Of a DNA stretch of 64,000 bases, positions 5,134 to 49,089 are shown piece after piece. Position 1 is the first letter of the stretch, and each line of letters starts with the position of its first letter. The notes beneath the pieces were generated by a model, which was given only the letters and a program-made list of their open reading frames with translations, ran no database searches and was not told the DNA's origin. Location of the stretch: the NCBI RefSeq assembly GCF_000143415.4, contig NW_003314262.1:231673-295672 (forward strand), in the 5' to 3' direction. Made by a program: the position numbers and the translations under genes. Source of the DNA: Selaginella moellendorffii. Lineage: Eukaryota; Plantae; Lycopodiophyta.

Positions 5134-6009
<876 letters not shown>

Positions 6010-14907: not shown

Positions 14908-15132
14908 TATTGTGAATGTGACTTCGGGTATCGAAAGTTACCTGTTGGCTGTCCTTTTGAATATTCTTTCCTTACTGCTACAACGGTAAGAGGTTGGTAT
15001 TGTTGGTCCCTTTTTCAATCTCCACCTTAGCTAGTTGAGAAACTAGTCTTTGCATGTGCACTTGACCAAATGAATATAAAGATAGAATTCCTAAATGCTA
15101 TTAGTCAAGCATACTTGACTTAGTTAGAGAAA

Positions 15133-16931: not shown

Positions 16932-16946
16932 ACTCCACCACCCATA
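16932..16946 (-). promoter_or_regulatory. Polypurine tract of A1 (TATGGGTGGTGGAGT)
   Basis: Abuts the 3' LTR; the same sequence occurs at 50698-50712 and in family B. Confidence 0.8.
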
Positions 16947-19900
16947 GACGAAGTTCGATGTCCTCATCGAACGGTAAACCCTTTCATAAAGTAACACCCA
17001 CACGTGTTACCATTTCCATCCTTGGCACCTAGCCAATCTTTGTCTATGGTTTGACATCAAAGGCTCACCATGCCTTGTCCATCCTTTAAGGAGTGTAGTC
17101 TCTCCAACTTAGAGACTGATTGGACCACATGTAATGGTTCTCCCCTTTTATTGGTTTAGTTCTCGCTAAACCTCTTAGAGACCCTTCTCTAAGTCAATCC
17201 CACTACTCCTTCTCGAGTAGTCTCAATTTCCATCTATTGAATGTTTGCACCTTGGAACTTTTACTCTTTTGACTTTTTGGGAGTCAATTTCCTAGGTGTC
17301 TCCAACACCTTGCATTGCACAGATTGTGCAACTCCACTTCCCTATCCTAGGAAGTTCATTACTTGAGGGCACCATCATCCTCTCTTCTATTTCGTGCCAC
17401 CTTGGGCACTAAGTTCCATTTATCATACTTTGTGCTAAGGCTGTCCATGGCCCTATCATTTGGCTACCTTACCGCTCCCTCACTTGGAGTCTTTACTTCG
17501 CCAAATTGGAGCACTTAGGAATCCGTCCTTGAAAGTCCGCTTCCTTTCCCACAAGCTGTTAGCATCGAACACATTAGTGTTCCTTGGCTAACTTTGCCAT
17601 TTGGATCCCTTCCATTAAATTCCATGGCCCAAACTTTGGCCACTAGTCCTTTGCTCCTATCCTTGATTGTTGCACCCAGCAACATCGGATCGCTACCTCC
17701 ATTTTTGAGGTATCCTTTCGGTTCCATAGCAAAGACTCTTCTTTGCCAAGTCCGGAGGATGTTCACCCCTAGTATGTCTCTTTAGCATATTCTGCTATGG
17801 GCTCTATCCATGGCCCAACTTCGTGACCCTCCCATGGGTCTTTTATAGAGACTATTTTCCTCGGACTCACTATGCCATCGGACGGACATAGTTTATTTCC
17901 CTTAGGTGCTCTTCCCACTTGGTCATCGCGACCAAGCCACACCATCTTAAACAGTTCAATTTCAACATTTTGAACCAGGAACTTCATTCCTTAGCCAACC
18001 AAGGACCTTGTCCTTATCTGGCCATAAGATCACCTAGTGATCTCACCTTGGCACCTTAACAGAGTTGCCAAGAGGTACTTGGTCTTCTAGACCTCCAAGT
18101 TGTTGACTATAACCCCGGGGGCATCCCCCACACTTGGCGGTGCACCCAAGCTAGCCCTTACGGCCAAGGGTTCATAGCAACTGAGATTAGGTGTCCCCAT
18201 CTCACTCACCACGACCTTGGTGCCACTTGCACCAAAGCGTTCAAGTTAGATATGCCGAGCTTTCACACTAAGCAATCTAACCGTGCATCACGACTCCGAG
18301 GCATCCCTCGCTTGGCGGTGTGCCCAAACCAGTCTCCCCACTGAGAGTCCATGACCACCGATATATGAGTGTCCTCATATTCCAAACCATCACCACGCCC
18401 TAGCGATTTGGGACTCGAACCCAAGCACTAGAGGGTCGGGACTCGAACCCAACCTCCGTATATGCATCTACGGACGGCATCACACTAGATGCCTGGCGTG
18501 ACTCCCCACGCCGGTGCACCAACTTATTTTTAAAGCGCGCTATAGATCACAGCTTAGGAACCTGGTTCCTCCACACTGCCAAGTCCTCTCACTTGACATG
18601 TCTGTGATCATGCATGGACTCCTCCATGCTCGGCCCCATGGCCCACCCTTTTTGAAGTTATCAAATTCAACTAGGGTATTTGTTCCCCTGACGTGCCAAT
18701 CTCACTTGGCAAGTCCTCCGACCATTGTAACATGGTTCCTGCATAAGCGTGAAAGTCCTTGACCATCGACTTTCGTTCAAAGCCCTCTCTTTGAACACTT
18801 GGGAACTACTTCCCTAACCTTGATAACCTTGCCTCATGGCAAGCTTCAAGACCACGCTTCTGCTGCGCCACTCTGATTTCGCGCGTTCCATGAACCATTT
18901 ACACTTGGCCTTTCTAGGTACTACGCTACCTAGAATCGTCTTTGGGAACTTTGAAGGAACTCTGTCCCTCAGCTTGCTAAGGCCTCCCCTTTCGCAAGCT
19001 TTATAGTTGCCATATAGTCTAACATGGACAATTCCATATTTTAGACTCTCCATGGTATCACGGTTGCTAGCAACAACATCCTCGAGCACCCTCTTGATTC
19101 TCCACTCCCAACTTTCATAACCACTGTTGGATATGCCCTTTGATTTCTATGGTTCAGTTCCATCCCAACACTACTTGCCTTTGGCTTCACACCTTTCCTT
19201 CGGTCATTCTCCTCCAGACCAGGAGGATAGCTTTGCACTTTCTATCATGCCTTAGCAAGTATTCTTAGGGATGAACCTACTCAATAGCCCAGGGAGTGGT
19301 TCCTCAATCCGGGTATGCTCAGCTTATAATCCCACACACTGGGGTTACATTGTTGCTTATGGGCCTTTACATGCCCATCACTAGCCTTGCCAAAATTCCA
19401 TTTTTGGCTTTGTCCAACTTGGGTAGACAGTCCTCTCCTGTCTCCGCAACCTTGGACATTTGGATAACACCTTCTATCCATCATTCGCTAAGGACTTAGT
19501 CCCTTGAGCTTTATCCATTGCTCTTGCGATATCAAACACCACCTTCTGGTGTTCTAGAGTGTTCGGGTGTCCCAATGATGGCTTTCTTGACAATGAGTAT
19601 TTCCTTTTATGACATTGACTTACTATATCGCAACATAAGAAACTTATCCCCCGTAAGGGTATATCCGACTTCCCTATACTAGAAGTCTTGGGTAGCTACC
19701 TTCTACCCGTTTAATCAGTTATTTTGCACCTCTTGCTTAGTTGCCTCATAGTTGTCAAGTCCTACAACTCATTGCTTGGTGCTTTCACACCTCCATCACT
19801 ATCTGGGTCACCACACTCCAACTGCATGCTCTGCAGCTTAAGCTATGCCATTCCCATTTCCATTGGGATTCCTTTGGCAAGGGGTTCTCATGAACCCACC

Positions 19901-20967
19901 AACATAGCCTCAAGGTATCACACCTTGGCACATTTGGTGTCTCCACACCATCGGCTCCACGAGCCTACCTCTATGACATTTCCCTTTGTGTCTAAGTCTT
20001 TGCCAAGACCAACACCGCTCTTTCTCATGCCAACCATCTGTTAGCACTGCCCCATAGAGGTCACACACAACTTTATGTCAAAGTTGTTTTCTTCTGGGAA
20101 CACCTTTCCCATAACTTTAGCATGGCACATTTTGCCATCGATGAGATACTCTCTGTTCTCATCCTTGGATCCTATGATCCCCCCCCATCCTTTGTGGGGT
20201 ACAACGCACCTCAGTCCAAATGCTTCATTCAGTCCTTTTTAGGACTCTACTTGAGTCGTCTAGCAGTTTTGGACTTGGTTAATCCACCGACCCGTAAGGT
20301 TCTACTTGTGAGGCACTAGCTCACTGGAATACACATCTTGCATTCCGGTCCTACTCAAAAGGACTATTTTCACAAGTGTTACTCCGACACTTGATTTTGT
20401 TCTCTGGGGGCAACCTTTGCCCCTTAGGACTACTTGTCCATGTGATGAGAACACCAACTCATCCACTTAATACACCCCCAACTCCTGGGGTTGTTCCAGC
20501 ATTTATTAGAGGTAGCCCCGGCTACCTTTTCAAGGACTTGAGTCCTATTCCGTATTTGACCTTCCACGGTCATTACCTTTGGTCTCACATTCATGAGCAC
20601 CAACCTCAACTATATGAGGATAATCTTGTGACTCCTTTATTGTTTTGGAGTCTCTATCTTTCCCGTGATCCCAACTTTAGTTGTTTACCACAACAACCTT
20701 CGCCAATTTGCTGAGACAAATGCTCATCTGGATCACATCCTCAACTCAATGAGGAAAACCTTGCACTGTTCCCAAGATCCCAAAGTCGTTCCATTATTGG
20801 CCCTTTTCTATCCACCACCTCGTCTACAAGTTCACACATGAACTGTAATGGAGAGCCATGTCTTCCAGACTTGCTACTCCTCAAGGATAGGCCCACTCCT
20901 CGGACCTTCCGATGCCAACACTAGTGGTGATATACTTGAGCACCAATAAAAGTCAGACTAAGGAACA

Positions 20968-20979
20968 GCTCTGATACCA
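20968..20979 (-). promoter_or_regulatory. Primer-binding site for initiator tRNA-Met (TGGTATCAGAGC)
   Basis: 3 nt from the end of the 5' LTR; canonical tRNAiMet PBS. Confidence 0.9.
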
Positions 20980-20982
20980 AAT

Positions 20983-22787
20983 TGTAAGCGACTAATTTTT
21001 CCATTCTACTTTAGTCACTTAACCACACCTCCGACCACTTGGAGGAGTCTCATTCACAACCTCCATAAGTCCCATTCAGGACTTGGGGCTTGCTAGCCCC
21101 GAGAATGGCATCCATGCCACTCAACCTTTGCACTTGGTCCAAGTGCTCCACGTGTCCGATCCCAAGGTACCACTGACATCTCGGCCCGTTACGCTAAGGC
21201 CATGCCCATTCACCTTTGCTGCGCAAATGGTCCAATACCACTTGCATCACCATCCCGTCTCTCCAAGACTGGGCCATCTGTCTACGAGGGGTCATCCTGG
21301 ATCCACTCCTTAGCATCCTTAGGATGCCCACAGACCTGGGGAATCGCCTTCCCCAAAGTCCCTTTGTCAGTTCCTACCAAGTCCCTTTCTGCCCCTGGCC
21401 GTGTTTGCCAACACTACCACTGGATCGAGGCCCACAGGCCCGACCACTAAGTCCCACGGTCCTCTGGGACTTCCTCACCACACGACTGTGTCCTTGGTCA
21501 CTACCCCAGAGGACTGCTCCTCTTCCTTTCCACAGTCTGGGCCTTTGGGACGACATTTCGGAACACCGTGGCCTTACGCGAGCCACCTGGGTACTCTCCC
21601 CACCTATCGCCTTTAGGTGCTCTAGCCATGGGCTTAAAGCGAGGTTCCATTGAGCCATGCCTGGTATCCAAGTAGGTAGTGCCACCCACACTTGGACTGG
21701 GAGCATCGGCCAGTCGATCTCCCGGGGGAACTAGAGCCGGCTCTTGAACACTTCACCAAGCTACCCCACTTGTCGGTCCGTATTCACTCTAGTCTTGGAC
21801 TTCCCAGTGGTCAGTTCATCACCCAACACTGGGTCTGGCCTTCCTGGGCCAAACTGGCCTTTCCTGGCCAAACTGGCTCCACTGCAGTCCTCCCCCTTAC
21901 TATACTTTTGGAGCTCACCAAACCCCCCAGGGTCTGGGAGACGAACGCTTTGGGCTTTCACCCTCTCAGGCTCCGGACTCGGACTCGGACTCGGACTCGG
22001 ACTCGGACTCGGATTCGGATTCGGACTCGGACTCGGGCTCGGGCTCGGTCTCGGTCTCGGCCTCGGTCTCGGTCTCGGTCCCGATCTCGGTCTCGGTCTC
22101 GGTCTCGGTCCCGGTCTCGGTCTCGACTTCGGACTCCATCTCGGACTCCATCTCGGACTCCATCTCGGACTCCATCTCGGACTCCATCTCGGGTCCATCT
22201 CGGGTCCATCTCGGCAGCCAACTGTCTGTCCATCTCGGACTCCATCTCGGACTCCATCTCGGACTCCATCTCGGACTCCATCTCGGACTCCATCTCGGAC
22301 TCCATCTCGGACTCCATTTCGGGTCCATCTCGAGTCCATCTCGGACTCCATCTCAGACTCCATCTCAGACTCCATCTCGGGTCCATCTCGGACTCCATCT
22401 CGGACTCCATCTCGGACTCCATCTCGGGTCCATCTCGGGTCCATCTCGGACTCCATCTCGGACTCCATTTCGGGTCCATCTCGGGTCCATCTCGGACTCC
22501 ACTTCGGACTCCAACTCGGGTCCACCTCGGACTCCACTTCGGACTCCATCTCGGACACTCCCACGTGTCATGTGTTGGTCCTTTTGGGTCCCGTTTTGGA
22601 GCCTCGCCTTTTGCTCGTTTCGTGCTCGTTCCTCGAGCACTTCGTTGGGAGTTCCACTCCCGCTCTTGACTTTTCAAGTCGGAGCTTTTGGTCCAAACGT
22701 GTTACGCTCGTTTGGCTCTCGCTTCGGCCACTACCATGTGGCGCCCTTCCGGCTCCACTTTGGGGCCTAGGGATTTTGTGTCTCACA
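20983..22787 (-). repeat. 5' LTR of A1
   Basis: TG..CA ends, followed on the minus strand by the PBS. Confidence 0.92.
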
Positions 22788-25377: not shown

Positions 25378-27270
25378 TGTAAGCCATAAATTTTTCCTTT
25401 CCAATTTGCCAGCTTACCTCGTCTATCTGACCAACACTACCTTGGCTTGTGCTAAGTTCCCTTGCCAAGGTTCCTGCCTATTGTACCAGCTCCTACTTGG
25501 TCCTACTTGGTTTTAACTACTCACTGCATGAGCAACGAAGCGTCAGCCATCCATCCACGGATTCCCAAATCTCTCCCAATCCCCCTCCCCGGGTTAGACT
25601 GGACTTAAGGTTCGACTACACTTCCCGTAGGCACAAGCAGCCAAGCACACCAAGCTTCTAGATTCCTAACATCCCTTGGTACAACAAGACTTGATCATGG
25701 GACCCTCTAAATCCCAAGCCTTGGGTGTAACACTTGCATCGGGACATCGGGGCGAAACACTGTGGCTTAACGGCCTAGTATGGGTACGTCTACCCCCCCC
25801 ACTTCCATCCCGAAGGGAAGGCCTAAGCCCCTAGGAAAGGTGAGGACCAATGAGCCACAAGGTACTCAAGTGGGGCACCACTCCACATGAGCTGGGAGCA
25901 CCGCAGTCGGTTTCCCTTTCGGGAGTGGGAGCTGCTCTTGAGCACTTTCTCGGGTGGCCCATTCGGCACCACCCGAGTCCATGCTCACTCCCACCCAAGG
26001 CCCTTCAGCCCTAGTCTCAACCTCAAGTCAGTTTGGAAGCACCACTGGAGAGTTCCTTCAAGACTGGTTCCTAGACCTCACTATCCTTACTATACTTTTG
26101 GAACCCCCTATAGCCCCCCTGGGAGACGCACATTTTGGGCTTTCACCCCTTGATTTGTATTAGTACTCAGACTCGGTCTTAGACTTGATCTTGGACTCGA
26201 TCTCGGACCCGACTTCGGACTCGGTCTCGGACTCGATCTCGGACCTGACTTCGGACTCGATCTCGGACCTGATCTCGGACTTGACTTCGGACTCGACCTT
26301 GGACTCGGTCTTGGACCCGATCTTGGATCTCGGACTCTGTCTCAAACTCGGTCTCCGAGTCGGCCTTGGATTCGATTCTGGACTCTATCTCGAACTCGGT
26401 CTCAGAGTTGGTCTTGGACTCGATCTCAGACTCGGTCCCATCTGATGAACTCTTTATCATTTCGGTCATGCTTTCGAGGATCCTTTAGCCTACGACACCT
26501 TGGGGAGTTGGTTCCTTACAACTCTACCACCCATAGAAGAAGTTTGATGCCTATATCGAACGTCTCTTTTAAAATCCTACAACTTGTTGACCATGTCTCT
26601 GAGGGCATCCCCCCACTTAGCGGTGTGCCTAAGTTAGCCTCCCCGGCCAAGAGCCCATGACAACGGAATATAGGTGTCCCTATACCCCTCACCTCACCAT
26701 GCCTTAGTATGGGGTTGGGACTTGAACCCAGCCTTGCTTTACTAGGGGGTTGGGACTCGAACCCAACCTCCATAGAATACGTCTATGGATTCGACATCCC
26801 CGCGGGGAGTCAGGCATAGTGCCCTACGCCTGGTCGACCTAGCTAACCCATGCTAATTAGCTTACTTTCGGCGTACCTTCGGGTCCCAACATATGCTATT
26901 GCTCAACTTCACAAATTGATACTTTAATTGAACTTTGCATAAGTACATAGAGTTTTGCCTTGCAGAAATTCCTCCACTAGATCTCGCGTGTTCGCTAGGT
27001 TCTCCTCCGATTCCCATGTTGCTTCGCACTGTGGAAATCCTTTCCACTTCACATGGAACTCTCTCACCTCGTGTCCTTGTCGCTTGCTCTTGCGCGCATT
27101 GAGGATGGCCTCGACTTCGTATTCCTCCTCCCCTTGGATAACCTCAGGTAAAGGTCTTACTTGGTCCTTGGTGAAGCGGATCCTCAAAGTACGGCTTGAG
27201 TAAGTTCACATGGAACACTGGGTGCATCTTTGCCATCTCTCAAGGAAGTTGGAGACGATAAGCCACTTTA
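25378..27270 (-). mobile_element. Element B1: truncated chromovirus (3' LTR 25378-26520, PPT, 3' UTR, chromodomain end of pol)
   Basis: LTR homologous to 29461-30565; chromodomain EYEVEAILNARK..EFHVKWKGFPQCEATWESEENL. Homology to B2 ends at ~27270. Confidence 0.9.
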
Positions 27271-27281
27271 TTGGTTTACCA

Positions 27282-29057: not shown

Positions 29058-30967
29058 CAATGACTATTTGAACCAATAGACTAATCTCTATAGTCTTGAT
29101 TAATCCACTTATAATCATGCCTAAGAAAGATCTACTAGTGTCGTGCTAAATAGCTATGGACCAACCTACTTGCCACTCATAGCAAACCCAAGAAAGGTTC
29201 CTTTCACCCACGGTACATAGAACAACTATAAGCTCTTGAATTTAGACTTCCTAGGAGGTCACCTAGCCCAGTACTATTCAAACCCAAGGATGCTTAACCC
29301 CAAATATCCCAAGCGATTGGAAAAGGGGGTGCACTCTTGTTCATGGGCCCTTTCCCTCTATATTTGAACCCCTATGGATCGTCTCTCAAGTCGTTCTCTT
29401 TGGTTGTTTACAACAACTCATAGAACCACTGATAGACTAACATTAATCCTGCCAACTTAATGTAAGCCACAAATTTTTCCTTTCCAATTTGCCAGCTTAC
29501 CTCGACTATCCGTCCAACTCTGCCTTGGCTTGTGCTAAGTTCCCTCGCCAAGGTTCTCGCCTATGGTACCAGCTCCTACTTGGTCCTACTTGGTTTCAGC
29601 TACTCACTGCATAAGCAACGGAGTGTTAGCCATCCATCTACGGATTCCCAAATCTCTCCCAATCCCCCTCCCCGGGTTAGACTGGACTTAAGGTTCAGCT
29701 ACACTCCCCGCAGGCACAAGCAGCCAAGCATACCAAGCCTCCAAATTCCTAACACCCCTAGGTACCACAAGACTTGATCATGGGACCCTCTAAATCCCAA
29801 GCCTTGGGTGCAGCACTTGCTTCGGGACGTCGGGGCGAAACACCGTGGCCTAATGCCCCGGTATGGGTACCTCTAACCCCCCACTTCCATCAAGTGGGGC
29901 ACCACTCCACCTGAGCCGGGAGCACCGCAGTCGGTTTCCCTTTCGGGAGTGGGAGCTGCTCTTGAGCACTTCCCTGGGTGGCCCCTCTGGCACCACCCAA
30001 GCCCATGCTCACTCCCACCCAAGGCCCCTCGGCCCCAATCTCAACCTCAAGTCAGTTTGGAAGCACCACTGGAGAGTTCTTTCAAGATTGGTTCCTGGAC
30101 CTCACTATCCCTACTATACTTTTGGAACCCCCTGCAGCCCCCCCCCCCCCCCTGGGAGACGCATGCTTTGGGCTTTCACCCCTTGACCCGGATTAATATT
30201 TGGACTTAGTCTCTGGCTCGATCTTGGACCCGATTTCGGATCCGACTTCGGATTCGGGTTCGGACTCGATCTCGGACTCGATCTTGGACCCGATCTCAGA
30301 CCCGACCTCGGACTCGACCTCGGACTCGGTCTCGGACCCGATTTCGGATCTCGGACTCCGTCTCGAACTCGGTCTCGAACTCGGACTCGAACTCGGTCCC
30401 CGAGTCGGTCTCGGACTCGATTCCGGACTCTATCTCGAACTCGGTCCTAGAGTCGGTCTTGGACTCAATCCTCGACTTGGTCCCATCCGATGAACTCTTT
30501 GTCATTTCGGTTACGCTTTTAGGGATCCTTTAGCCTATGACATCTCGGGGAGTCGGTTCCTTACAACTCCACCACCCATAGAAGAAGTTCGATGCCCACA
30601 TCGAACGTCTCTTTTCATCCTACGACTTGTTGACCATGTCTCCGGGGGCATCCCCCCACTTAGCGGTGTGCCTAAGTTAGCCTCCCCGGCCAAGAGCCCA
30701 TGACAACGGAATATAGGTGTCCCTATACTCCTCACCTCACCACGCCCTAGTATGGGGTCGAGACTTGAACCCAGCTTTGCTTTACTAGGGGGTTGGGACT
30801 CGAACCCAACCTCCGTAGAATACGTCTACGGATTCGACATCCCCGCGGGGAGTCGGGCGTAATGCCCTACGCCTGGTCGACCTATCCAACCCATGCTAAT
30901 TAGCTTACCTTTGGCGCGCCTTTGGGTCCCAACATATGCCACTTGCTCAACTTTGCAAATAGATATT

Positions 30968-33900
30968 TTAATTGAACTTTGTGTAAGTACATAGAGTTCT
31001 ACCTTGCAGAAATTCCTCCACTAGATCTCGCGTGTTCGCTAGGTTCTCCTTCGGTTCCCATGTTGCTTCGCAGTGTGGAAATCCTTTCCACTTCACATGG
31101 AACTCTCTCACCTCGCGTCCTTGTTGCTTGCTCTTGCGTGCATTGAGGATGGCCTTGATTTTGTATTCCTCTTCCCCTTGGATAACCTCAGGTAAAGGTC
31201 TCACTTGGTCCTTGTGAAGCGGATCCTCAAAGTACGGCTTGAGTAAGTTCACGTGGAACACTAGGTGCATCTTCCCCATCTCTCGAGGAAGTCAGAGACG
31301 GTAAGCCACTTTACCGATTCGTGCCTCAATCTCGTAAGGCCCCGTGAACCTGCTTAAGGAACTCAAGATTAATTCATTTATAGGAATACATGCATCTTTA
31401 CTTTTGGGTCAACTTTCGGCTGATCCCACTTGGTAGTCTAAGGTTCTTGGTGTTCAGCCACACCTTCTCCCCAACTTGGAACTCTACATCCCGACGCTTC
31501 TGGTTCGCGTATTTGGTTTGCCTTTGTTGAGCCCGTTCCAAGGAATCCCTCACTAGATTCCAAATACTGAGTCTTTCCGCTGTGAATGCCTCCACTGCGG
31601 GCAACTCTCCATGATATTCGGCCACGCCGAGTTCCACAGGACCTTCAATAGCTCGCCCATTGATGACTTCCCATGGACTCACCCCGATACTCGAATGTGG
31701 TGAGTTGTTATAACACATTTCCGCAAGTCCCAAATGACTTACCCAATCGGTCTGGTCTCCCGAGACATAGCATCGCAAATAATCCTCCAGCTGCCTATTC
31801 ACCCTTTCCGTTTGTCCTTCTGTCAAGAAGTGTTAGTGCCAACAACTTGACTTAATACCCCATACCTGTCTATGGGTGATAGGTTGTGCTGAATTTCAAC
31901 TTGGTGCGATACTGTTCTAGGAGAGTCCTCCAGAACCTACTGGTGAAGATCTTATCTCGATCTGAGATGATCTCTTCCGGTCTTCCCCGCACTCGAACCA
32001 CTTGTTCGAAGAATAGCTTCGCCACACCTTCCGCATCCACCTCCGTTGTGGTGGGTATGAAATGTGCCATTTTCGAAAATCGGTCCACCACCACGAATAT
32101 CGCATCAAACCCCTCGCTTGGGGGGAGTCCTGTGATAAAGTCCATCGTAAGACATTTCCACGGACGATCTGGAATTGGGATGCTTTGCAACAAGCCCCCA
32201 CTAGCCTTAGTCACGGCTTTTACCTACTGACATGTTGGACATGTCTTTACATAGTCTTGGATGTCCTTAGCCATATCTGGCCAATGGTACTTCCTCTTGA
32301 GTAAGCCCATCGTCTTGGGCACTCTGCCGTGTCCCGCAAGAGGTCCGTCATGACACTCTTCTAAGGCCACCTTCCTTAGTTCCCCTTCTGGAACATACAC
32401 CCTCGTTTGCTTGTAATAGATGAGTCCGTTGCGTTCCGCATAGCCCGTTTTCTTTTCCGTTGGCAGCTCACCTCTCTGGTGAGCTTCCCGTGCCTCTAGA
32501 TTCCTCAGCAACACTTCTTGTGCTAGACCATCGTTCTCATATGCTGTCCGCACATCGTTCCAGAAGGTTGCTGTTGCGCTGGATATTGCCAACCTCAAGC
32601 TCGCTTTTCGACTTAACGCATCTGCCACAATGTTGCTCTTCCCAGGCTTGTACAGAATCTCGCAATCAAACTCGGCCAAGGCATTGGCCCACCAACCTTG
32701 TTTCCCTCTCAGGTCGGGCTGTGACAAGAAGTGTTTTGTTGCCACATTGTCCGTGTAAACCTTGAAGTGTCTCCCAAGGTAGTGTCGCCACTCCTTGAGT
32801 GCCTTGACCACCGCAAACAATTCCTTCTCGTGGGCAGGCCACTTCCTTTGAGCCTTGTCCAACTTCTTCAAGAAGAACGCTACCGGATGGTTGTCTTGCT
32901 TCAAAACTGCGCCCAACGCAAAGTCCGAAGCATCCGTTTCTACCTCAAAGTCCTTACCAAAGTCTGGTAATGCCAATACGGGAGCCTTCCTCAACTTCCC
33001 TTTGAGGTGGACGAATGCCGCCTCGCATTCTGCTGTCCACACCATCTTCCCTTTTCCTGTTTGGTCCGTTAAGGGCAGGGTTACTCTCAAATAGTGTCTG
33101 ATAAACTTTCGATAGTAGTTGCATAGCCCCAGGAATGCCCTCAACTCATGTACATTCGATGGTCGCTCCCATTCCTGGATCGTTTGGACCTTCTCCGGGT
33201 CCACCTTGAGCCCGTCCTGGCCCACCACATACTCGAGAAACTTTACCTCTTGTTGAGCAAAGTCACATTTTCTCTCTTTAGCATACAGTTTGTGTTCCCT
33301 TAATTTCTCAAACACCTTCGCCAAGTGTTCGGCATGCTCCTGTAGCATCTCGCTATAGATCAGGATGTCGTCGATATAGACGACCACGAAGTGATCCAGA
33401 TAGGGTATAAAGATGTGGTTCATTAGCGCCGAAAATGTTGCCGGCGCATTATATAGCCCGAAGGGCATCACTAGAAACTCAAAGCTCCCATACCTCGTTC
33501 GACAGGTTGTCTTCTTGACATCTTCCTCGGCTACCCTGATCTGGTAGTATCCTGACCTTAGGTCAATCCTCGAGAAGTATTTTGCCTTTCCCAACCTATC
33601 AAACAGGTCCTCAATCCTTGGCAAAGGGTACTTGTTCTTCTTTGTATACTTGTTGAGCAACTGGTAGTCTATGCACATGCGCATAGATCCATCTTTCTTT
33701 TTCACAAATAACACCGGCGCCCCATACGGCGACTTGCTCAACCTAACATACCCTTTGTCCACCAACTCCTCTAGTTGGCACTTGAGCTCCTTGAGTTCTT
33801 TTTCGTTCAAACGATAAGGGGGACGAACCACCACCTCAGCACCCTCGACCAGCTCAATCTTATGTTCTATCGGTCGTGCGGGGGGCAACCCCGCCAGTAA

Positions 33901-34584
33901 CTCGGTATTCTGGAATTGGTCCAACACCCATTGGATCACTAAAGGTACTTCTTCCGTTCCTGTCTTTTTGTCACTCTTCACCGAGAGTAAGCACAAAAAG
34001 GCTGCCTTAGTTCCTTTAGTGAGTTGTCCTCTCGTGGACACCAGGTTTAAGCAGGATTCTTTGGCCTTGCTTTGCCCTACCTTTAGATCTTGGGCCTCCA
34101 CCCTAGATCTTCTTCCTTGGGCATTCGCTAGTACCACAAGGTTTCTACCTTGTCCATGCAGGGCTACCACGAACCGATTAAACCAGTCCATTCCGAAGAT
34201 CACATCAAATCCCGCCATGTCCAACACGGTGAAGTCCATGTCCACTTTCCAAGTCCCTACTTTGACTCTCGCTTGTCGAAGTACCTCATCGGTGCTTTGG
34301 CTACCTTGAACAAACTCTATAGTCCTGGGTTCGCCTAGCCGCTGCACCGTTAGTCCGGCTTGCCGGACTATGTCTGCAGCCACAAAATTATCCGAAGCAC
34401 CCGTGTCAATAAGGATCTTAACAAATCTACCTCCGAGCTTCCCCCGGAGGGCTAGTAGATGTCGCGAGCGACTCTCTACCAAAGTTGCTCGTGTAATGAG
34501 TAACTTTGAGTTAGGGACTGGATCACATACCTCAGTTTGGACTTCACTCGATTTGATGGCCATATTGGCTCCGGGTAGGGACAT
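30968..34584 (-). pseudogene. pol: pol of B2 (protease, RT, RNase H, integrase, chromodomain) with two GT-AG introns (31820-31865, 31350-31401) and three point stops
   Basis: [29 protein letters not shown] finger, MDF..ISDRD..QTER, GPY, chromodomain. Stops at 32224, 31870 and 31292 are each one C>T change from CAG or CGA. Confidence 0.9.
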
Positions 34585-35040
34585 TCCATCGAAAAGTGTC
34601 CCGCTTCACCGCAGTTGTAGCATACGTTATTTCCCACGCTGCTATACGACTTGACCTTCTTATCCATGGGTTTGTCTCTTTTCGCTTGACTCCCCCACGT
34701 ACTCGCTCGCTGGCCACCGGATTTGCCTTTCCGGAACCCCGAGGACTCATTTTTAGAGAAACTCCTCTTGAATTTCCCTCTACTAAACGTTCCCCTTGGT
34801 TTGGCCCCTTTGCTAAACGTGGATCCCGACCCCGTCGTGTTCCCCTTTCGCAGATTATCGTTGAAATGCACCTTGATGGCCGCATCCAACGCTTCCTTGT
34901 AGTTGGTCGGGTTCCACCGCATCACTTCGCCGCGAGCCCAGGTTTGCAAACCTGATATGAAGGCATGGAACGCATCCATATCCCCCATGTCCGTGACAAG
35001 TATCCTCTTTGCCATAAACCCATTCACATACTCCTGAATG
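34476..35040 (-). pseudogene. gag: C-terminal part of B2 gag with CCHC zinc knuckle
   Basis: IQEYVNGF..FISGLQ..EV..NPTNYKEALDAA and [14 protein letters not shown]; the N-terminus was lost by the deletion into the LTR. Confidence 0.85.
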
Positions 35041-37942
35041 AGCAACAGAGTGTTAGCCATCCATCTACGGATTCCCAAATCTCTCCCAATCCCCCTCCCC
35101 GGGTTAGACTGGACTTAAGGTTCGGCTACACTCCCCGTAGGCACAAGCAGCCAAGCACACCAAGCCTCCAGATTCCTAACACCCCTAGGTACCACAAGAC
35201 TTGATCATGGGACCCTCTAAATCCCAAGCCTTGGGTGCAGCACTTGCTTCGGGACGTCGGGGCGAAACACCGTGGCCTAATGGCCCGGTATGGGTACGTC
35301 TAACCCCCCACTTCCATCCCGAAGGGAAGGCCCAAGCCCCTAGGAAGGGCGAGGACCAATGAGCCACAAGGTACTCAAGTGGGGCACCGCTCCACCTGAG
35401 CCGGGAGCACCGCAGTTGGTTTCCCTTTCGGGAGTGGGAGCTGCTCTTGAGCACTTCCCTGGGTGGCCCCTCCGGCACCACCCAAGCCCATGCTCACTCC
35501 TACCCAAGGCCCCTCGGCCCCAGTCTCAACCTCAAGTCAGTTTGGAAGCACCACTGGAGAGTTCCTTCAAGATTGGTTCCTGGACCTCACTATCCCTACT
35601 ATACTTTTGGAACCCCCTGCAGCCCCCCCCCCCCCCCCCTGGGAGACGCACGCTTTGGGCTTTCACCCCTTGACCCGTATTAGTATTTGGACTTAGTCTC
35701 TGGCTCGATCTCGGACCCGATTTCGGATCCGACTTCGGATTCGGTCTCGGACTCGATCTCGGACTCGATCTCGGACCCGATCTCGGACCCGATCTCGGAC
35801 CCGACCTCGGACTCGACCTCAGACTCGGTCTCGGACCCGATTTCGGATCTCGGACTCCGTCTCGAACTCGGTCTCGAATTCGGACTTGAACTCGGTCCCC
35901 GAGTCGGTCTCGGACTCGATTCCAGACTCTATCTCGAACTCGGTCCTAGAGTCGGTCTTGGACTCGATCCTCGACTTGGTCCCATCCGATGAACTCTTTG
36001 TCATTTCGGTCAAGCTTTTGGGGATCCTTTAGCCTACGACATCTTGGGGAGTCGGTTCCTTACACTCAAAGCGTAACTTTGAATTGCTAATGTGCCTAAT
36101 TCACAAGCCCAAGCACAAACTCATGCAAACAAAACAACTCAATCCCTTTTATGATCCCAAGAGCAAGCTCATATAATACAGTACAAAAAAGGTAACTAAA
36201 ATCCATATCCAAGGAACAGATGTGTAGCGCACCTGAATTTGGAGCCGAACTCCAAGCCTGTTGCACTACGAAATGAGGGTTCGGTACAATCCCACAAGCA
36301 CCAGCTCCCTGTATCTAGCACCTGCATGCAAAATGGTGTCAGACGGAGTCTAGCATAATTTTGGCATACCGGTGGCCTAATGCGAGGAGGAGGGTACCCC
36401 ACCGACTAGAGCAGCGTGGAGCTTGGGTTTAGACCCAAGCCGGACGTAGAACAAGGAGCGACACAGCCCAACGGGAGCCAAACTAATGTCTCAAGTGGTC
36501 GGACATGCATTCCAACCATTATCCCTACTATACATTTGGAACCCCCCATAGCCCCGCCCCGCCCCGCCCCCCCCCCCCCGCCCGAGGAACACACGCTTTG
36601 GGCTTTCACCCCAAGCCTCCCTTAGTACTAGCAGTTAGTCTCTGGGACAAGCTCGAAATTTACTAAATATGGAATGGTGCTAGATTGTGAACACCATTGT
36701 GTTCAGGCTGACCTCTACATTCTATAGATATGCCAAATGAGCAAATCTAGACACTTTCCATAAATAGCATTTGGGACCGAAATGAGACTAACACAAAGGG
36801 CATGATAGCGAGGGTGTCTGGTAGACATGGTAAGTTATCATCCGGCGATATTGAAGGACTAGTCTCAATACATAAGGGTTCTTGTCACTAGCCAGTGCAA
36901 GACATAACGAGACGGGAACTCCTTACCGGGCTAAGTATGCTTAGCTAATAGCACGTAGGAATTCCGTCCTTATACTTGTCCACTCTAAGTACACTCAAAA
37001 TGTCCAGTTAACTCCACTAGCACAAGAGGGGCTACTAAAGGGATCCAATTGTACCGATCTTCTGCCGTCATGGCAATAAAGAAAGAGTGTCCGTAAGGAT
37101 TGGCCGACAAGTATCTTTCGATACCCAAAGTCACATTCGCGACACTCTCCCCCCCTTGGGGAAGATCGACGTCCTCGTCGATGCATACCCAAGTCTAGCA
37201 AACCGTCAAGGAAACAACTCTGAAAATTAACGGAAAGCACACTATGTGGGAAACACACCAACTTAAATGAGTTATGGAACGACCTCTCCTCTACATCCAA
37301 AGATGTTAAGACTCAGACACCCTCTGGCTGTCACCGACAAGGAAATGACTAATGGAGTTAGCCACCCTTGTTGCTTCGAGTACCACTCAGCGTACAAAGG
37401 AATTATACATCCCTACCCACAGGGACATAGGGAGAAGGCCAAAGGCCCAACTTCCCCTGAGCAAGAAATCAACCTCGTCGGGAAGATTTAGACAACTATT
37501 ATAAACTAGCAAATGAAGTTGTTTACACGACCACGCCCCTTTTGCAAAAATGAGTCATCGAGAGAGAGGCGAGGACTTGTGATCAGTTTATAATAATTAT
37601 CCCCATGGTTATGGATTGGACCCATGCATCAAAGTGCCGAAGTCAGTCTGCCAAAACTGACCCAAATTCTAACAAACGAGAGAGACGACACTTGGATTTA
37701 CAATGCTACCATCTTTGCCCAACCATGACAGAACAAAGCAGACAAACTAGAAGATTCCGTGAAAGGATATGTATTAGAATAGTAAAAAAATCAAAAGACC
37801 TTGCCGATATATTTAGCCCTAACTCTAACCTAAAACACCTATTTTACAAGTTGGTTCAATAGAACAATGTGAGGCAGCTAACGTGCCAATAGAAATATAT
37901 TACTTTATTAATTTGCAAGATTTATTACAAGATTTACAAAAG

Positions 37943-40900
37943 CTAATCTTTATTACGATTCTCATACTCCGTGACAAGCTCACGAGCATGTGTAAGATTC
38001 CTAAGAGGTTCCCAAGTTGATTCACAAGTTGGGTAACCTTTCCACTTAACTAGATATTCCTTCACATGAGCTTGTCTCCAAAACCGGGAATCCAAGATAG
38101 TTTCCACTTCGTATTCTGGTTCACCGTCCACAACGTCTGGTGGTGGACGAATCTCCCCTTGACGTGCAACATCCATAGTGTAAGGAGCCAATAGATTGGC
38201 ATGAAATACATTATGAACATTGGACATCTCCGTAGGCAGATCCAACCAATAGGATACATCACCAACGCGTTTCAACACCCGATAGGGTCTAACATATCTC
38301 GGCAACAACTTTCGAGATAAAGAGCCCTTAATAGTTAAGTTTCAGGAAGATAGCCACACCCGGTCTCCCACTTGATAGGATGCATCCCGACAATGCTGAT
38401 CCTTATCACGTCGATACCTATCCTAAACTTTGCCCATTGCCTCAGTAGCTCTAGACCAACCTTGGTGTAACTACTCTGCATAAGTCTTAACAGTCAAGAC
38501 CACCACTTCAAACATTGGTTTCTATACAACAATCTATTGAGGAACCCCACGAGCATTCCCTTGTAGCATCTCCCATGGAGAACAGCCTATAGCACTGTAA
38601 AATGTGTCATTATAACAGATTTTTGCTGTATCCAAATGCTCAACCCAGTCGCGTTGGTTCGCCGCGATATAGTACCGCAGATAATCCTCAACTTGAGCAT
38701 TCATGCGTTTGGTCTGCCCATCAGTCTGAGGATGATAAGTCGTATTAAACTTCAACTTGGTATCGAACAACTAGAACAGTGTGCCCCAAAACTTCCCCGT
38801 AAACCTCAAATCCCTATCCGAGATCATCTCTTCGGGAAGACCACGAACTCGTACTACTTCATGGAAAAAGAGCTTTGCTGCTTGTTTCGCATTTATTGTT
38901 CCCACAATTCGAATGAAGTGTGCAATCTTCGACAACCGATCCACAACCACCATCAAAGTATCATAACCCTTAGACTTTGGCAAGCAAGTGACGAAATCAA
39001 GTGTCACACTCTGAAATGGCCATGCCGGTGCTAGAATGCATTGCAACTTTCCAGCTTGCTTATCAGTTATGCGCTTACATTGCTGGCATATACAGCAGGA
39101 ATAGATATAATCTGCTACATCACCTTCCATACTAGACCAGAAAAATCCCTTTTTCAATAAAGCCAGATTCTTTTGCTTACCACCATGTCCCACTACCAGA
39201 ACATGATGTTCCCGTAGAAATAACTACTACAGATCCTTAGAGATAAGATACAATCTTTCTTGCTTATAAAATATAAGCCCATCCCAAACTGAGAAGTGAA
39301 GCTGTGCATTAGGGCGACTAGCAACTTTCGCTACTTCACTACCAGGGCTCTGCTTCAACAACCCCGCATGGCATAAGATTGCCTTCGCCAATGGATCACT
39401 TCCATATGAAGCCTGAACGTCCTCTAACCAGTTCGAACTGATTGCCGATATTGCCTGGAATTGAGCTTGACGACTCAATGCATCCGGAACAATATTGTCT
39501 TTACCAGGTTTATATATGATTTCAATATCATATCTAGCAAGCTTCTCTTGCCAACAAGCCTACTTTGGCATAAGCTTAGGCTGCGTAGCAAAGTAGCTTA
39601 GTGTGTTACTATCCATATAAACCTTGATATGTCCACCCAAGTAGTGTCTCCAATGTTCCAGGGCTGACACTATAACAAACATCTCTTTCTCATCTTCGTT
39701 GGGTTTCATCTAATTTCTTGGAATAAAATGCAATGGGACAACCATGTCGCCTTAGTGTAACACCAACCGCTTTATCACAATCTTCCTACAACACGGCATC
39801 GATAGCATAGCCAGATGTATCACAATGCACTTCAAAGGGTTTATCAAGATCTGGGATCCTGAGAATAGGAACCATAGTCAAGATCTCCTTCAACCGTACA
39901 AAAGCACGCTGACATGCTGGTGTCCAGTGAAATGGAATATTGCTTTTCGTCAACTCAGTCAACGGAAGAGTAATTTTTGCAAAATTGCAGACAAACTTGC
40001 AATAGTATCCCACCAAACCGAGAAAGGAACGAACATCTTATACAGTGGTCGGGACTTCCCAAGACTTCACCACTTCCACCTTCTTTGGATCGACCTCAAT
40101 CACGCCACCACCAACTATATGACCAAGAAAGTTTACGCACAATTGACCAAAAGCGCATTTACTTTCCTTAGCATATAGTTTGTGTTCGCGCAACTTCTGA
40201 AACACTAACTCCAAGTGTTTCAAATGATCCTCTAATGTTTCACTGAAGATTAGAACATCGTCGATATATAGGACAACAAATGTGTCCAAATAATCTCCAA
40301 ATATTCTATCCATCATAGTGCTGAACGTTGCCAGAGCATTACATAACTTGAACGGCATGACAAGGAACTCATAAGATCCATACCGAGTCTTAAAGGCTGT
40401 CTTCTCCACATCCTGATCCGCCACCCGTATCTGATGATACCCGGACCGCAAATCAAGTCACGTAAAATACTTAGCCTTTAAGAGTTGGTCAAACAAGTCA
40501 TCAATGCGAGGCAAAGGATAACTGTTTTTAACCATGATCTTGTTGAGTGCCTGATAGTCAATACACATCCTCATAGTTCCATCATTTTTCATAACAAAAA
40601 GGACTGGCGCTCCATAAGGTGACTTGCTTGATCGAATATAACCTTTGTTAAGAAGCTCTGTGAGTTGCTTCTTGAGTTCAGCCATCTCCTTGATGTTCAA
40701 TCGACATGGAGCCTTTGTAGGTGGTTTAGAACCCAGAATAACCTCAATCCGATGATCAACCTCACGGCTAGGAGGTAGCTTTGGCAGTAAATCCTTTGGG
40801 AAGATATCCTGATTCCTCGCCAACAACTCCAGTATCTTCTTTGGTACAAGATCAACCCTGTTGCTGATTCGAACTGAGTCACCAACACCCTCAGCCTCCA

Positions 40901-41480
40901 TCACTTGAACCCAAAATGTCTGACATCCCTTCTTAGCTACTTCTTGAGCGGCTCTCGTAGTCAGGAACCTAGCATCCCAATCCTTTGAGGAGTGCTTTTG
41001 CAATTGGAAAGACACATTAGGACGTCTTTTTGACTTCAATGTGATACGATTTTGTCCAGCACCATAAATCCCTTTTATATATTTGTTGAAGAAGTCCATA
41101 CCAAACATCATCTGAAAATTTGGTATCTTCAACACTACCAAGTCCACTTTTTCTTTCCACTTGGATATTTTTATTAGAACATCACTCACAAACTTTCTGG
41201 CTACTTGCCCACCTTTTGCAAACCGGAAATGCATAGGCAACATTTGCTCAACATTCAATCCTAATAACTTAACTAAGTCTTTGGATATCACACTATGCAT
41301 AGCTCCCGTGTCAATCATCACTTGGATTTAGTGTCCACAGACAAAGCCTACCAGATATATCAATGGATCAGTGTTTGCATTAACTACAAGAAAAGCTTGA
41401 GGAAAGCAATGAAAGTTATTCACCTCCTCTTCCTCATAGTCCGCATTGACGAACTCGTCAACCCCTTCGGCTTCACAAGA
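37943..41480 (-). pseudogene. pol: pol of element C with several stops and frameshifts; no introns at the B2 positions
   Basis: [60 protein letters not shown], chromodomain EYEVETILD..YLVKWKGYP..STWEP. Confidence 0.9.
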
Positions 41481-41587
41481 GTCCCTACCTTGATACATGT
41501 TGGAAATAATGGTTTTACAAATGGTGAATTATGGGATGGATAGCGGTGAAGAGCTAAACCATTTTATTTAGGTTTACTATTGAAGAC

Positions 41588-42892
41588 TTAAGTTGCAATG
41601 CTCAATTCCTTTTTAGGAACCTTGCTATTGCTCCTTGAGTAGTTTGGTGTTAGACCTCCACCATTTTCCCCCATGACATTAATACAAGACCTTGTCTTAT
41701 GCTTGTTGAGACATTTTGAGGACCTATGTCCTGACTCTCCACAATGGAAGCAATGACCCACACTACCCATTCCGCTAGGAGCAGGTTTTGCAAGTTGCTA
41801 CTACTTGTACCCACCAGTAGAAGGAACAAAGGGCCTAGGACTAGAAGAAGCTGCTGGTGGTCTCCAACCACCACCACCTTTGTTAACCGTTGCTTGTGAG
41901 CCTCTAGAGTGGAACCTACCTTCCACCCTCTATTTCTGATCACCTTGTTTATTCCCAGAATTTTTATTCTTATACAAGTTACCAGCATACGGTTGCTGAT
42001 ATTGTTCCATAAGTGAGTGACTAAAGGCAACTTGCTGCGCTGCCTCCTTACACTCCAAGTACGTCTTCAGCTTAAACTTCAAAATCTCATTGCGAGAAAA
42101 TGAACTTAAACCCTCTAGAAAATAACTCCAAGCATCTTCGTCACCCATATTTGCAATCATAATGCACTTCTGAGCAAATGCATTAACGTAATGCATGAGA
42201 TCCCCTCGCTGCTTTAACCACCACAGCTCCACACAAAGTCTTAGACCAAGATCATCCGGCAAGTATTCGTTACGGATATGACACCGCATCTTGGTCCAAC
42301 TTCTAGTCTGCCCTTTTTCAGCACACACTTGGCACCACCAAGTTTTGGCATGATTGCTGAGAAAGGATTGCGTGCCCACAACTTTCGTATGATCATCTAC
42401 ATCTGCCGCTATGAAATAGTTTTCCATATCATAGACCCAGTCTTCCAAAACTTGATAGTCCCGCATGCCTTTGAAGTTGGGTGGTTTTGGAGGCTTGAAC
42501 TTTGAAAATCGTGCAACCGGGGGCAACTGCAGAACTCCATCGTCCTCAAAACTTGAAGAGGAGTCTGGTTGCTTAGGCTTAGCTGGTTTAGCTACCTTAG
42601 CTTTTTTCTTCCTCTTCTTCTTCTCCTTCTTCAATTTGTGAATCTCCCTTCGCAAATTCTCAATCTCGACTTCCTGAGCCATACGCTGCAACGCTGCAGC
42701 ATCTGGCTCTTCCTCTTCTGACTCGGCCTCAGCCTCTTCCGTAACATCTCTAGTAGGAGTTTCCTCTTCCCAATTCGCCCGTCTAGAGGTTTCAGTGTCA
42801 TCAGCACAATTCCTCTTCACCATCCCGCTAGCTGCATTCATGCTTCTATCAATAACTGAACATGCATACAACATTCTTACCGAATGGTGCAA
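41588..42892 (-). pseudogene. gag: gag of element C (frameshifted before the zinc knuckle)
   Basis: PPNFKG..LEDWVYDMENYF, AKTWW, LKQRGDLMHYVNAF, FLEGLS; CFHCGESGHRSSKC lies in another frame. Confidence 0.85.
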
Positions 42893-45369
42893 TCCAACTA
42901 ATCCTACACAAGTCGCTTTGGATCTACTAGAAAAGTGTGAGACGTAAAATCCCTAGGCCCCAAAGTGGAGTCGAAAGGGTGCCACGTGGTAGTGGCCGAA
43001 GCAAAAGCCAAACGAGCGTAACAAGTTTGGACTAAAAAGCTTCGACTTGAAAGGTCAAGAGCGGGAGTGGAACTCCCAACGGAGTGCTCAAGGAACGAGC
43101 ATGAAGCGGACAATAAGCAAGGCTCTGAAAAGTGACCCAAAAGGACCAACACATCACACGTGGAGGAGTCCGAGATGGACCAAGACGGAGTCCGAGATGG
43201 AGTCCGAGATAGACCGAGATGGAGTCCAAGACGGAGTCCGAGAATGGAGTCCGAGATGGACCCGAGATGGAATCCGAGATGGAGTCCGAGAAGGACCCAA
43301 GTTGGAGTCCGAGATGGAGTCCGAGATGGACCGAGACAAAGTCTGAGATGGAGTTTGAGATGGACCGAGACGGAGTCCGAGATGGAGTCCGAGATGGACC
43401 AAGATGGAGTCCGAGATGGACCCGAGATGGAGTTTGAGATGGACCGAGATAGAGTCCGAGATGGAGTCCGAGATGGACCCGAGATGGAATCTGAGATGAA
43501 GTCCGAGAAGGACCCGAGATGGAGTCCGAGGTCGAGACCGAGACTGGGATGGAGACTGAGACCGAGACCAAGACCGGGACCGAGACCGAGACCGAGACCG
43601 AGACCGGGACCGAGACCGAGACCGAGACTGGGACCGAGACCGAGCTCAAGCCCGAGTTCGAGTCCGAGTCCGAGTCCGAGTCTGAGTCCGATTCCGAGTC
43701 CAAGTCCGAGTCCGAGTCCGAGTCTGAGAGGGTGAAAGCCCAAAGCGTTCGTCTCCCAAACCCTGGGGGGTTTGGTGAGCTCCAAAAGTATAGTAAGGGG
43801 GAGGACTGCAGTGGAGCCAGTTTGGCCAGGAAAGGACAGTTTGGCCTAGGAAGGCCAGACCCAGTGTTGGGTGATGAACTGACCACTAGGAAGTCCAAGA
43901 CTAGAGTGAACACGGACCGACAAGCGGGGTAGCTTGGTGAAATGTTCAAGAGCCAGCTCTAGTTCCCCTGGGAGATTGACTGGCCGATGCTCCCAGTCCA
44001 AGTGCGGGTGGCACTACCTACTTGGATACCTGGTGTGGCTCAATGGAACCTCGCTCTAAGCCCATGGCTAGAGCACCTAAAGGTGGAAGGTGGGGAGAAT
44101 ACCCACGGGGCTCACATAGGGCCACGGTGTTCCGAAATGTTGTCCCAAAGTCCCAAATGGGTGTAAGGAGGAGGAGTAGTCCTCTAGTGTAGTGATTACG
44201 GATACGGTCACATGGTGAGGAAGTCCCAGAAGACAATGGGACTTAGTGGCCAGGGCAGTGTTGGTGAATATGGCCATGGACGAAAAAGGGACTTGGCAGG
44301 AACTGACAAAGGGATGTTGGGGAAGGCTATTCCCCATGTCTATAGGCATCCTAAGGATGCTAAGGAGTGGATCTGGGATAACCACATGTGGACGGACGGC
44401 CCAGTCTTTGAGAGACGAGACTGTGATACTGGTGGTGTTGGACCACCGGTGCTACCAAGGTGAATGGGCATGGCCTTAGCGTAATGGGCTAGTATGTCGG
44501 TGGTACCTTGGGGTGTCGGTCATGGGACCAGACACGTGGAGCACTTGGACCAAGTGCAAAGGTTGAGTAGCATGGATGCCATTCTCGGGGCCAACAAGCC
44601 CCAAGTCCTGAATGGGACTTATGGAGGTTGTGAATGAGACTCCTCTAAGTGGTCGGAGGTGCGGTTAAGTGACTAAAGTAGAATGGAAAAATTAGTCGCT
44701 TACAATTTGGTATCGGAGCTGTTCCTTAGTCCGACTTTTATTGGTGCTCAAGTATATCACCATTGATATTGGCATCGGAAGGTCCTAGGAGGGGGCCTAT
44801 CCTTGAAGAGTAGCATGTCGAGAGGACATAGCTCTCCACTCAAGTTCATGCGTGAACTTAGGCGTGATATGGTGGATAGAAAAGGGGCCAGTAAGGGAAC
44901 GACTTTGGTGTGAGACACAAAATCCCTAAGCCGCAAAGTGGAGTCGGAAGGGTGCCACGTGGTAGTGGCCGAAGCGAAAGCCAAACAAGCGTAGCACGTT
45001 TGGACTAAAAGCTCCGACTTGAGAGGTCAAGAGCGGGAGTGGAACTCCCAACAAAGTGCTCAAGGAGCGAGCACGAAGCAAACAATAAGCAAGGCTCCAA
45101 AAAGGGACCCAAAAAGGACCAACGCATGACACGTGGAAGTGTCCGAGATGGACCCAAAGTGGAGTCTGAGATGGACCCGAGATGGAGTCCGAGATGGACT
45201 CGAGATGGAGTCCGAGATGAAGTCCGAGGTGGACCCGAGGTGGAGTCCGAGATGGACCGAGACGGAGTCCGAGATGGAGTCCGAGATGGAGTCTGAGATG
45301 GACCGAGACGGAGTCCGAGATGGAGTCCGAGATGGAGTCTGAGATGGAGTCCAAGATGGAGTCCGAGAT

Positions 45370-45469
45370 NNNNNNNNNNNNNNNNNNNNNNNNNNNNNNN
45401 NNNNNNNNNNNNNNNNNNNNNNNNNNNNNNNNNNNNNNNNNNNNNNNNNNNNNNNNNNNNNNNNNNNNN
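45370..45469. other. Assembly gap inside the LTR tandem array
   Basis: 100 N. Confidence 1.
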
Positions 45470-48400: not shown

Positions 48401-49089
48401 GACCAAAGGAAATGTGTGAAGCCAAAAGCAAGAAGTAAAGGGGTAGAACCGAACCATAGGAATCGAAGGGCATAACCAAGGTTGGTTATGCCAGCTGGGA
48501 GTGGAGAATCAAGTGGGGGCTCGAGGGTGTTGCCACTAGCAACCGTGATGCCATGGAGAGTCTAAAATATGGAATTGTCCATGTTAGACTATATGGTAAT
48601 TGGAAAGCTTGCAAAAAGGGAGGCCTTAGCAAGCTAAGGGACAGAGTTCCTTCAAGGTTTCCAAAGACGATTTTAGGTAGCTTAGTACCTAGAAAGGCCA
48701 AGTGTAAATGGTTCATGAAACGCGTAAAATCAGAGTGGCGCAGCAGAAGCGTGGTCTTGAAGCTGGCCATGAGGCAATGCTATCAAGGTTAGGGAAGTAG
48801 TTCCCGAGTGTTCAAAGAGAGGGCTTTGAATGAAAGTCGATGATCAAGGGCTTTCACGCTTGTGCAGGAACCATGTTACAGTGGTCGGAGGGCTTGCCAA
48901 AGCGAGATTGGCAAGTCAGGGGAACAAATACCCTAGTTGAAGGTGATAACTTCAAAAGGGGTGGGCCATGAGGCCAAGCATGGAGGAGTCCATGCATGAT
49001 CACAGACTTGTCAAGTGTGAGGACTTGGCAGTGTGGAGGAACTAGGTTCCTAAGCTGTGATCTGTAGCGCGCTTTGAGTATAAGTTGGT

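Follow-up and report, generated by a model that had tools for sequence, protein, structure and literature searches.

Genes and retroelements of the window

The window, the whole stretch of 64,000 nucleotides of Selaginella moellendorffii DNA that was analyzed, contains a nest of LTR elements and two host genes (Table 1). The host genes are interrupted by six introns of 62, 64, 65, 70, 71 and 74 nt, and the DUF604 gene product was 99% identical to a Selaginella moellendorffii protein. Intron retention is the most frequent alternative event in this species, accounting for 42% of events.

Table 1. Features of the window. Positions are counted from the first letter of the window.
Feature	Position	Strand	Remarks
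Ribosomal protein S5/S7 gene	5189-6010	minus	four introns, 62-71 nt
DUF604/Fringe-like glycosyltransferase gene	6824-8666	plus	introns of 65 and 74 nt
RT fragment	14259-14987	plus	short; another gypsy element
Family A copies	15133-22787; 42936-52466	minus; plus	7.6-kb LTR element, 1.8-kb LTRs
3′ fragment of another B copy	25378-27275
Solo B LTR	53388-54514		perfect GGATT duplication; in family A internal segment
Element C	36223-42900	minus	decayed; 3′ LTR 36223-37144, 922 bp
Element B2	36064 to 29461	minus	Ty3/gypsy chromovirus, 6.6 kb
B2 left target-site duplication	36065-36069	minus	TTGAG; 4/5 identical to right one
B2 5′ LTR	35030-36064	minus	starts TGTAAGG; 3′ end truncated and fused to mid-gag
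B2 gag, 3′ half	34531-35029	minus	CCHC zinc knuckle; frame change near 34572
Candidate optional third intron	34476-34530	minus	gag-protease border; 55 nt; GAG/GTATGT..TTGGTAG
Protease to catalytic core	31866-34475	minus	protease, RT, RNase H, integrase zinc finger, most of core (first two Asp)
Insert 1	31820-31865	minus	46 nt; CAG/GTATGG donor, CTAAC branch motif, GACAG end
Middle exon	31402-31819	minus	418 nt; catalytic Glu (GQTER), remaining core, start of GPY/F (SH3) domain
Insert 2	31350-31401	minus	52 nt; GTAAAG donor, TTAAT branch motif, CAG end
Last exon	30968-31349	minus	remainder of GPY/F domain, chromodomain
B2 polypurine tract	30566-30579	minus	identical in non-coding family A
B2 3′ LTR	29461-30565	minus	1105 bp; TGT..ACA; 15-G tract
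B2 right target-site duplication	29456-29460	minus	TTAAG

Pfam analysis of element B2 identified a zinc knuckle, protease, reverse transcriptase (RT), RNase H, integrase zinc finger, integrase core and chromodomain in the gypsy order, the chromodomain being assigned to PF00385 (E 3.6e-14). The protease-RT-RNase H-integrase arrangement with a C-terminal chromodomain, the TG..CA LTRs, the polypurine tract (PPT) and a 5-bp target duplication matching at 4 of 5 positions identify B2 as a Ty3/gypsy chromovirus. The insert-bearing DNA was integrated with LTRs and a target duplication, and the 5′ and 3′ LTRs differ at 33 of 961 aligned positions (96.6% identity, K2P 0.035). B2 itself is a dead copy: it has three in-frame stops (32226-32224, 31872-31870 and 31294-31292), a gag-protease frame change, and a deletion reaching from the 5′ LTR into the middle of gag, by which the end of the 5′ LTR, the primer-binding site (PBS) and the front of gag were all lost. 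The stops at 32226-32224 and 31872-31870 look private to this copy.

On the minus strand, the B LTR carries an acceptor-like stretch (CTAAC, pyrimidines, CAG) at about 29635-29605 and 35060-35030. The deletion in the 5′ LTR joins gag just behind this stretch, with a short shared sequence at the joint.

Two short inserts in the integrase gene

The integrase gene of B2 is interrupted twice. The first-pass annotation had described the interruptions as spliceosomal introns of 46 nt (31865-31820) and 52 nt (31401-31350), and the sequence agrees with it in coordinates, lengths and ends. Insert 1 reads GTATGG..CACTAAC..TTGACAG and insert 2 reads GTAAAG..TTAAT..TAAGCAG. Each shifts the reading frame by +1, and one homolog matched the window in three successive frames, switching at the inserts. 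Translation of RNA retaining insert 1 would terminate four codons into it, at an in-frame stop (31854-31852). Less well borne out were the residue given in brackets as Q in YHP(Q)T, which is a stop codon in B2 (31872-31870), and the match to host intron size, which was a generous reading of 46 and 52 nt against six host introns of 62-74 nt, all of them longer than either insert.

Both inserts have the features of U2 introns, namely a GT donor, a branch motif, a YAG acceptor and a U content (0.33 and 0.35 for inserts 1 and 2, respectively) above that of the flanks (0.18). Donor 1 agrees with the consensus in 7 of 9 positions, a score reached by one of 148 upstream GT sites; donor 2 as found in B2 is weak (5/9), the six host introns ranging from 5 to 8. 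The G+C content of insert 2 is below that of all 2483 upstream coding windows of equal size, and that of insert 1 is ordinary (256/2489 upstream windows). Among 25 same-length cuts per site, one gave GT..AG at insert 1 and two did so at insert 2, where the second cut failed to yield the K-L-x5-G-P-Y motif. In the 2.5 kb of upstream B2 coding DNA, GT..AG alone was found in 18 of 2489 46-nt windows and 15 of 2483 52-nt windows, and the combination of GT..AG with GTR, YAG and a YTRAY branch motif was found in none of either size (2489 and 2483, respectively).

The GACAG at the end of insert 1 repeats the last 5 exon bases, and insert 2 is bordered by a repeat of GT in B2, or of AGGT with a common variant. 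Because such border repeats can create the AG (and, for insert 2, the GT) on insertion, the chance test for GT-AG carries less weight. Short border repeats are a feature of intron gain by break repair or small insertions. No source of either insert was found within the window, where the longest exact matches were 11-12 nt. Folding analyses gave no significant RNA structure (z of -0.83 for insert 1 and +0.61 for insert 2; -2.0 and -0.6 with flanks). A small hairpin, not beyond that of shuffled sequences, is possible over the branch/acceptor end of each insert (31851-31822 and 31367-31353, minus strand); such hairpins could reduce splicing.

Residue spacing around the inserts was compared with that of 212 homologs; the pattern for site 1 was recognized in 152 of them and that for site 2, with 3-8 residues allowed, in 122. 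Three residues separate HP from GxxE in 151 of the 152, and B2 has the same spacing once insert 1 is cut at GT/AG. At site 2, where insert 2 interrupts the K-L-x5-GPY motif of the GPY/F domain, five residues separate K-L from G-P-Y/F in 122 of 122 homologs and in B2 once insert 2 is cut. The third residue of the catalytic triad lies 5 residues downstream of insert 1, at a site where the solved Ty3 integrase is continuous. The proposal that the Glu of QTER is this residue was confirmed by the D-x35-E spacing, which 225 of 230 matched homologs (of 359) share and which B2 attains only once insert 1 is removed. In keeping with the related claim that unspliced RNA cannot encode an active integrase, the product of RNA retaining insert 1 stops 5 residues short of that Glu. 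The residue ahead of GQxE is Glu at the B2 junction; among 273 homologs, 263 have Asp there and not one has Glu.

Relative to a homolog baseline (51 full-length homologs of 359), conservation ratios were 0.92 and 0.89 for the downstream exons versus 0.98, 0.83 and 0.93 for the upstream domains. The downstream exons retained 28 of 34 and 20 of 26 conserved columns, and the middle exon runs for 138 codons without a stop. By this sequence comparison the downstream exons equal the upstream domains in conservation, the test being a weak one if the inserts are young. In the protein search, identity reached 59% for the closest match to pol and 50% among the 150 best representatives, and no close relative revealing the spliced product was recovered by it, the middle exon being matched at best at 57% over a third of its length and otherwise at 47% or less. 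Eleven metagenome loci were distant decayed relatives without a DNA match to the window and were set aside.

A candidate third intron lies at the gag-protease border (34530-34476, minus strand). Its donor matches the consensus at 7 of 9 positions; the stretch is in frame if retained, and the protein ends 8 codons later if it is removed. In a scan of 4066 coding bases for strong sites, with thresholds set after the candidates had been seen, only this stretch and insert 1 were recovered (shuffle mean 0.1). Its removal would give a Gag-only product, making it a candidate for the BARE1/EVADE strategy in a gypsy element. The gag/pol frame change of B2 was rejected as an intron mark, as other copies differ near 34572 and the published ORF is single.

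Family identity and spread of the inserts

SM1-Galahad is described in the accessible text of Novikov et al. (2012, PMC3350952) as a Galadriel-related chromovirus of Selaginella moellendorffii with hundreds of copies about 95% alike, a length of 7.5 kb, a tRNA-Met PBS and TG..CA LTRs of 1076-1146 bp that contain a poly-G tract of 11-25 bp. The main ORF of its consensus stops in the core integrase, and two shorter ORFs come after it, one of 316 bp and one of 309 bp; the 309-bp ORF encodes a group I chromodomain whose chromo box is altered. The 2012 survey recovered no intact copy (accessible text of PMC3350952). Downstream of the core integrase, B2 has stop-free ORFs of 318 and 309 bp, with the chromodomain in the last, and its LTRs (1105 bp, 15 and 17 G) lie inside the published ranges. 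Its length is 6.6 kb with the PBS region deleted, versus 7.5 kb with the tRNA-Met PBS for SM1-Galahad. B2 fits the SM1-Galahad type, as matched by published description (LTR and ORF sizes) rather than by sequence alignment. SM-Tcn1, as given in the accessible part of PMC2864245, has LTRs that differ from those of B2 in size.

Had the consensus lacked insert 1, the middle ORF would not stand apart, and had it lacked insert 2, neither would the chromodomain ORF. Since the SM1-Galahad consensus is broken as B2 is (316/309 versus 318/309 bp), the breaks are family-wide. Neither "intron" nor "splic" occurs in the accessible text of PMC3350952, in which the breaks are given as separate short ORFs. 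The inserts are real and family-wide, and were overlooked in the original description of SM1-Galahad. They are not confined to one copy, being present both in the published family consensus (accessible text of PMC3350952) and in DNA contigs.

The contigs came from one DNA run (X1), which may be the source sample, and numbered 50,770 over 4461 bases. The bins holding the inserts had depths of 790,000 and 701,000, the values for all bins spanning 509,000-1,198,000, and no joint that skips an insert was found among the 15 joints listed (of 82; weakest depth 152). The 4461 bases yielded two indel rows at a level of at least 5%, both inside insert 1. Point depth inside insert 1 was about 99,000-111,000, lower than at all 40 listed sites (192,000-977,000). 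Joints were counted only in part and contigs lose rare variants; together with the low depth in insert 1, these limits leave room for an insert-free subfamily. The common letter at 31402 in this run turns donor 2 into AG/GT, and a common variant at 31370 retains the YTRAY branch motif.

Element C, with an ORF of about 4740 bp and TGT..ACA LTRs, fits SM2-Galahad, and its 5′ end is interrupted by a family A LTR. As the first-pass annotation had stated, it has no insert at either site and reads through both. SM2-Galahad is a sister family with the same domain order as B2 and a group I chromodomain, but differs in having a single open ORF and neither insert. The absence of the inserts from element C suggests that they were gained on the SM1 line.

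Family A has a PPT and a PBS, the latter presumably of the tRNA-Met type, and gave no match against 359 retro proteins. It shares with B the PPT and 17 of B's last 20 LTR bases; the PPT and ends of element C differ. On these features family A is likely a non-autonomous (LARD-like) partner of SM1-Galahad. One copy, A1, has LTRs that are 98.8% identical and a perfect 5-bp duplication (TTTCT). Because a young family A shares the LTR end and PPT of B, an integrase of the B type likely worked recently. With no open SM1-Galahad copy known, splicing would be the easiest explanation of such recent activity. The 3′ fragment of another B copy in the window starts downstream of insert 2.

Three RNA runs (X22-X24) were searched for junctions at the inserts, with 9.2 million records, or about 12%, taken from each and without a host-gene control. 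No junction read was present among the 11 reads obtained (10, 1 and 0 per run), a number too small to test splicing. One read over the start of insert 2 carries insert letters and thus derives from unspliced RNA or DNA.

Probable splicing, rival explanations and known systems

The interpretation that we favor, with a probability of about two in three, is that the inserts are true spliceosomal introns inside the retrotransposon integrase of an SM1-Galahad-type chromovirus, a family broken throughout at these sites. The inserts would have arisen as small insertions with short border repeats that were spliceable by chance and hence tolerated. Their sub-normal size (46-47 and 52 versus 62-74 nt) may make splicing leaky and leave most RNA unspliced, which, in an element with a single ORF, could limit the amount of integrase compared with Gag and RT. 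Unspliced RNA would serve as the genome and as the message for Gag, protease, RT, RNase H and an integrase truncated ahead of the catalytic Glu; the full integrase and chromodomain would come from a minor RNA species from which both inserts had been spliced. Integrase made from the spliced RNA would co-assemble into particles carrying unspliced RNA. As packaged spliced RNA would have produced insert-free copies, an exclusion mechanism would be required; spliced RNA might be barred from reverse transcription, possibly through separate pools of RNA like those of BARE1. A fuller scheme, possible but doubtful as a whole, makes SM1-Galahad an autonomous, high-copy family whose entire expression relies on tiny introns spliced by the host: removal of the gag-protease intron yields Gag alone, both integrase introns have to be removed for active enzyme, only fully unspliced RNA is copied, the introns were gained and then kept through hundreds of reverse-transcription cycles, and SM1-Galahad drives the non-coding partner family.

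SM1-Galahad could instead be an integrase-dead, non-autonomous family in which two insertions in a master copy were spread by a helper, which would be SM2-Galahad or a rare SM1 subfamily free of the inserts; the splice-like ends would then be by-products of insert origin that are not required. We regard this as unlikely. Spliced RNA was not seen (11 reads), AG/GT is obtainable from the border repeats, depth is low inside insert 1, the 2012 survey reported no intact copy (accessible text of PMC3350952), and non-autonomous partners do exist here in the form of family A. This reading, however, requires that two independent inserts both acquired donor, branch motif, YAG and U-richness in register by chance, a combination found in 0 of about 2,490 upstream windows. 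Further points against it are the downstream exons, which have no extra decay, the LTR ends and PPT shared by B and A, which differ from those of SM2-Galahad, and the lack of an insert-free joint among the joints listed (15 of 82). Less probable again is that the inserts are spliced but merely tolerated, as unregulated weak introns with no dedicated RNA sorting, insert-free copies being few, or low in number and doing most of the work. The sub-minimal size of the inserts, the weak donor 2, the prominence of intron retention in the host (the commonest alternative event, at 42%) and the loss of rare variants from contigs all agree with this; nevertheless, a few percent of packaged spliced RNA should yield insert-free copies among hundreds, none appeared in the listed joints, and both introns were retained rather than lost.

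Splicing would be unneeded altogether if ribosomes bypassed the inserts between matched codons, as in phage T4 gene 60. Insert 1 has the same codon at take-off and landing, as does insert 2 with the common variant; a stop lies just behind take-off, and the gaps are about 50 nt. However, bypassing of this kind is not known from the eukaryotic cytoplasm, the RNA structure is not significant, +1 indels are tolerated in insert 1, and the splice signals would be left unexplained, so that we consider bypassing very improbable.

That introns disappear upon retro-copying is the classic textbook demonstration of an RNA intermediate. Foamy viruses have a spliced pol mRNA, and some DIRS recombinase genes contain introns. 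According to the accessible text of a 2025 review, plant LTR elements are generally intron-free, the Ogre and EVADE types excepted. Ogre, of the Tat lineage of Ty3/gypsy, has an intron of about 274 bp between Gag-PR and RT-RH-INT that is spliced in a subset of transcripts (accessible text of PMC6317226 and PMC4408406). As would be the case for B2, this intron is retained in genomic copies and the full enzyme set comes only from the spliced subset; unlike B2, a chromovirus with two inserts of 46-52 nt in the integrase core and GPY/F domain, Ogre has one intron between two ORFs. The first-pass annotation was correct in placing the Ogre intron elsewhere, between Gag-PR and RT and not inside integrase, so far as these texts go; in B2 the protease-RT region is continuous. 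The logic of an unspliced genome and a spliced enzyme mRNA is already known from Ogre; the novelty of B2 would lie in where the introns sit (inside integrase), in how many there are and in how tiny they are. A full-text literature search, with most subscription papers, Repbase and the large REXdb supplements outside its scope, returned no report of introns inside an LTR-retrotransposon integrase.

If the introns in the integrase core are genuine, transposition would depend on host splicing, RNA sorting would be forced on the element, and the choice of RNA for translation versus packaging would become testable by a simple junction assay. They would also explain why no "intact" member was found in 2012 among hundreds of SM1-Galahad copies, would imply that screens relying on ORFs can mistake such families for dead ones, and would supply datable intron gains with border repeats.

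The short-Gag splicing of BARE1 and EVADE/copia (accessible text of PMC3735527 and PMC12786077) likewise involves a small alternative intron in a single-ORF element, but in those elements Pol is lost on splicing and all products are encoded by the unspliced RNA, whereas B2 would need splicing for integrase. BARE1 keeps separate RNA pools, and a DNA copy of the spliced form was not found in the work covered by the accessible text of PMC3735527. In B2, a BARE1-like role would fall to the candidate intron at 34530-34476. Gypsy-like integrase genes are also present in Ginger1 DNA transposons, where they have 1-4 GT-AG introns (accessible text of PMC2836005), and in GingerRoot of Selaginella lepidophylla (accessible text of PMC6839031). 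Unlike B2, these are cut-and-paste elements with terminal inverted repeats and, as DNA elements without RT, would not be harmed by introns. Identity of B2 as a Ginger-type DNA transposon was rejected because LTRs, a PPT, RT and RNase H are present.
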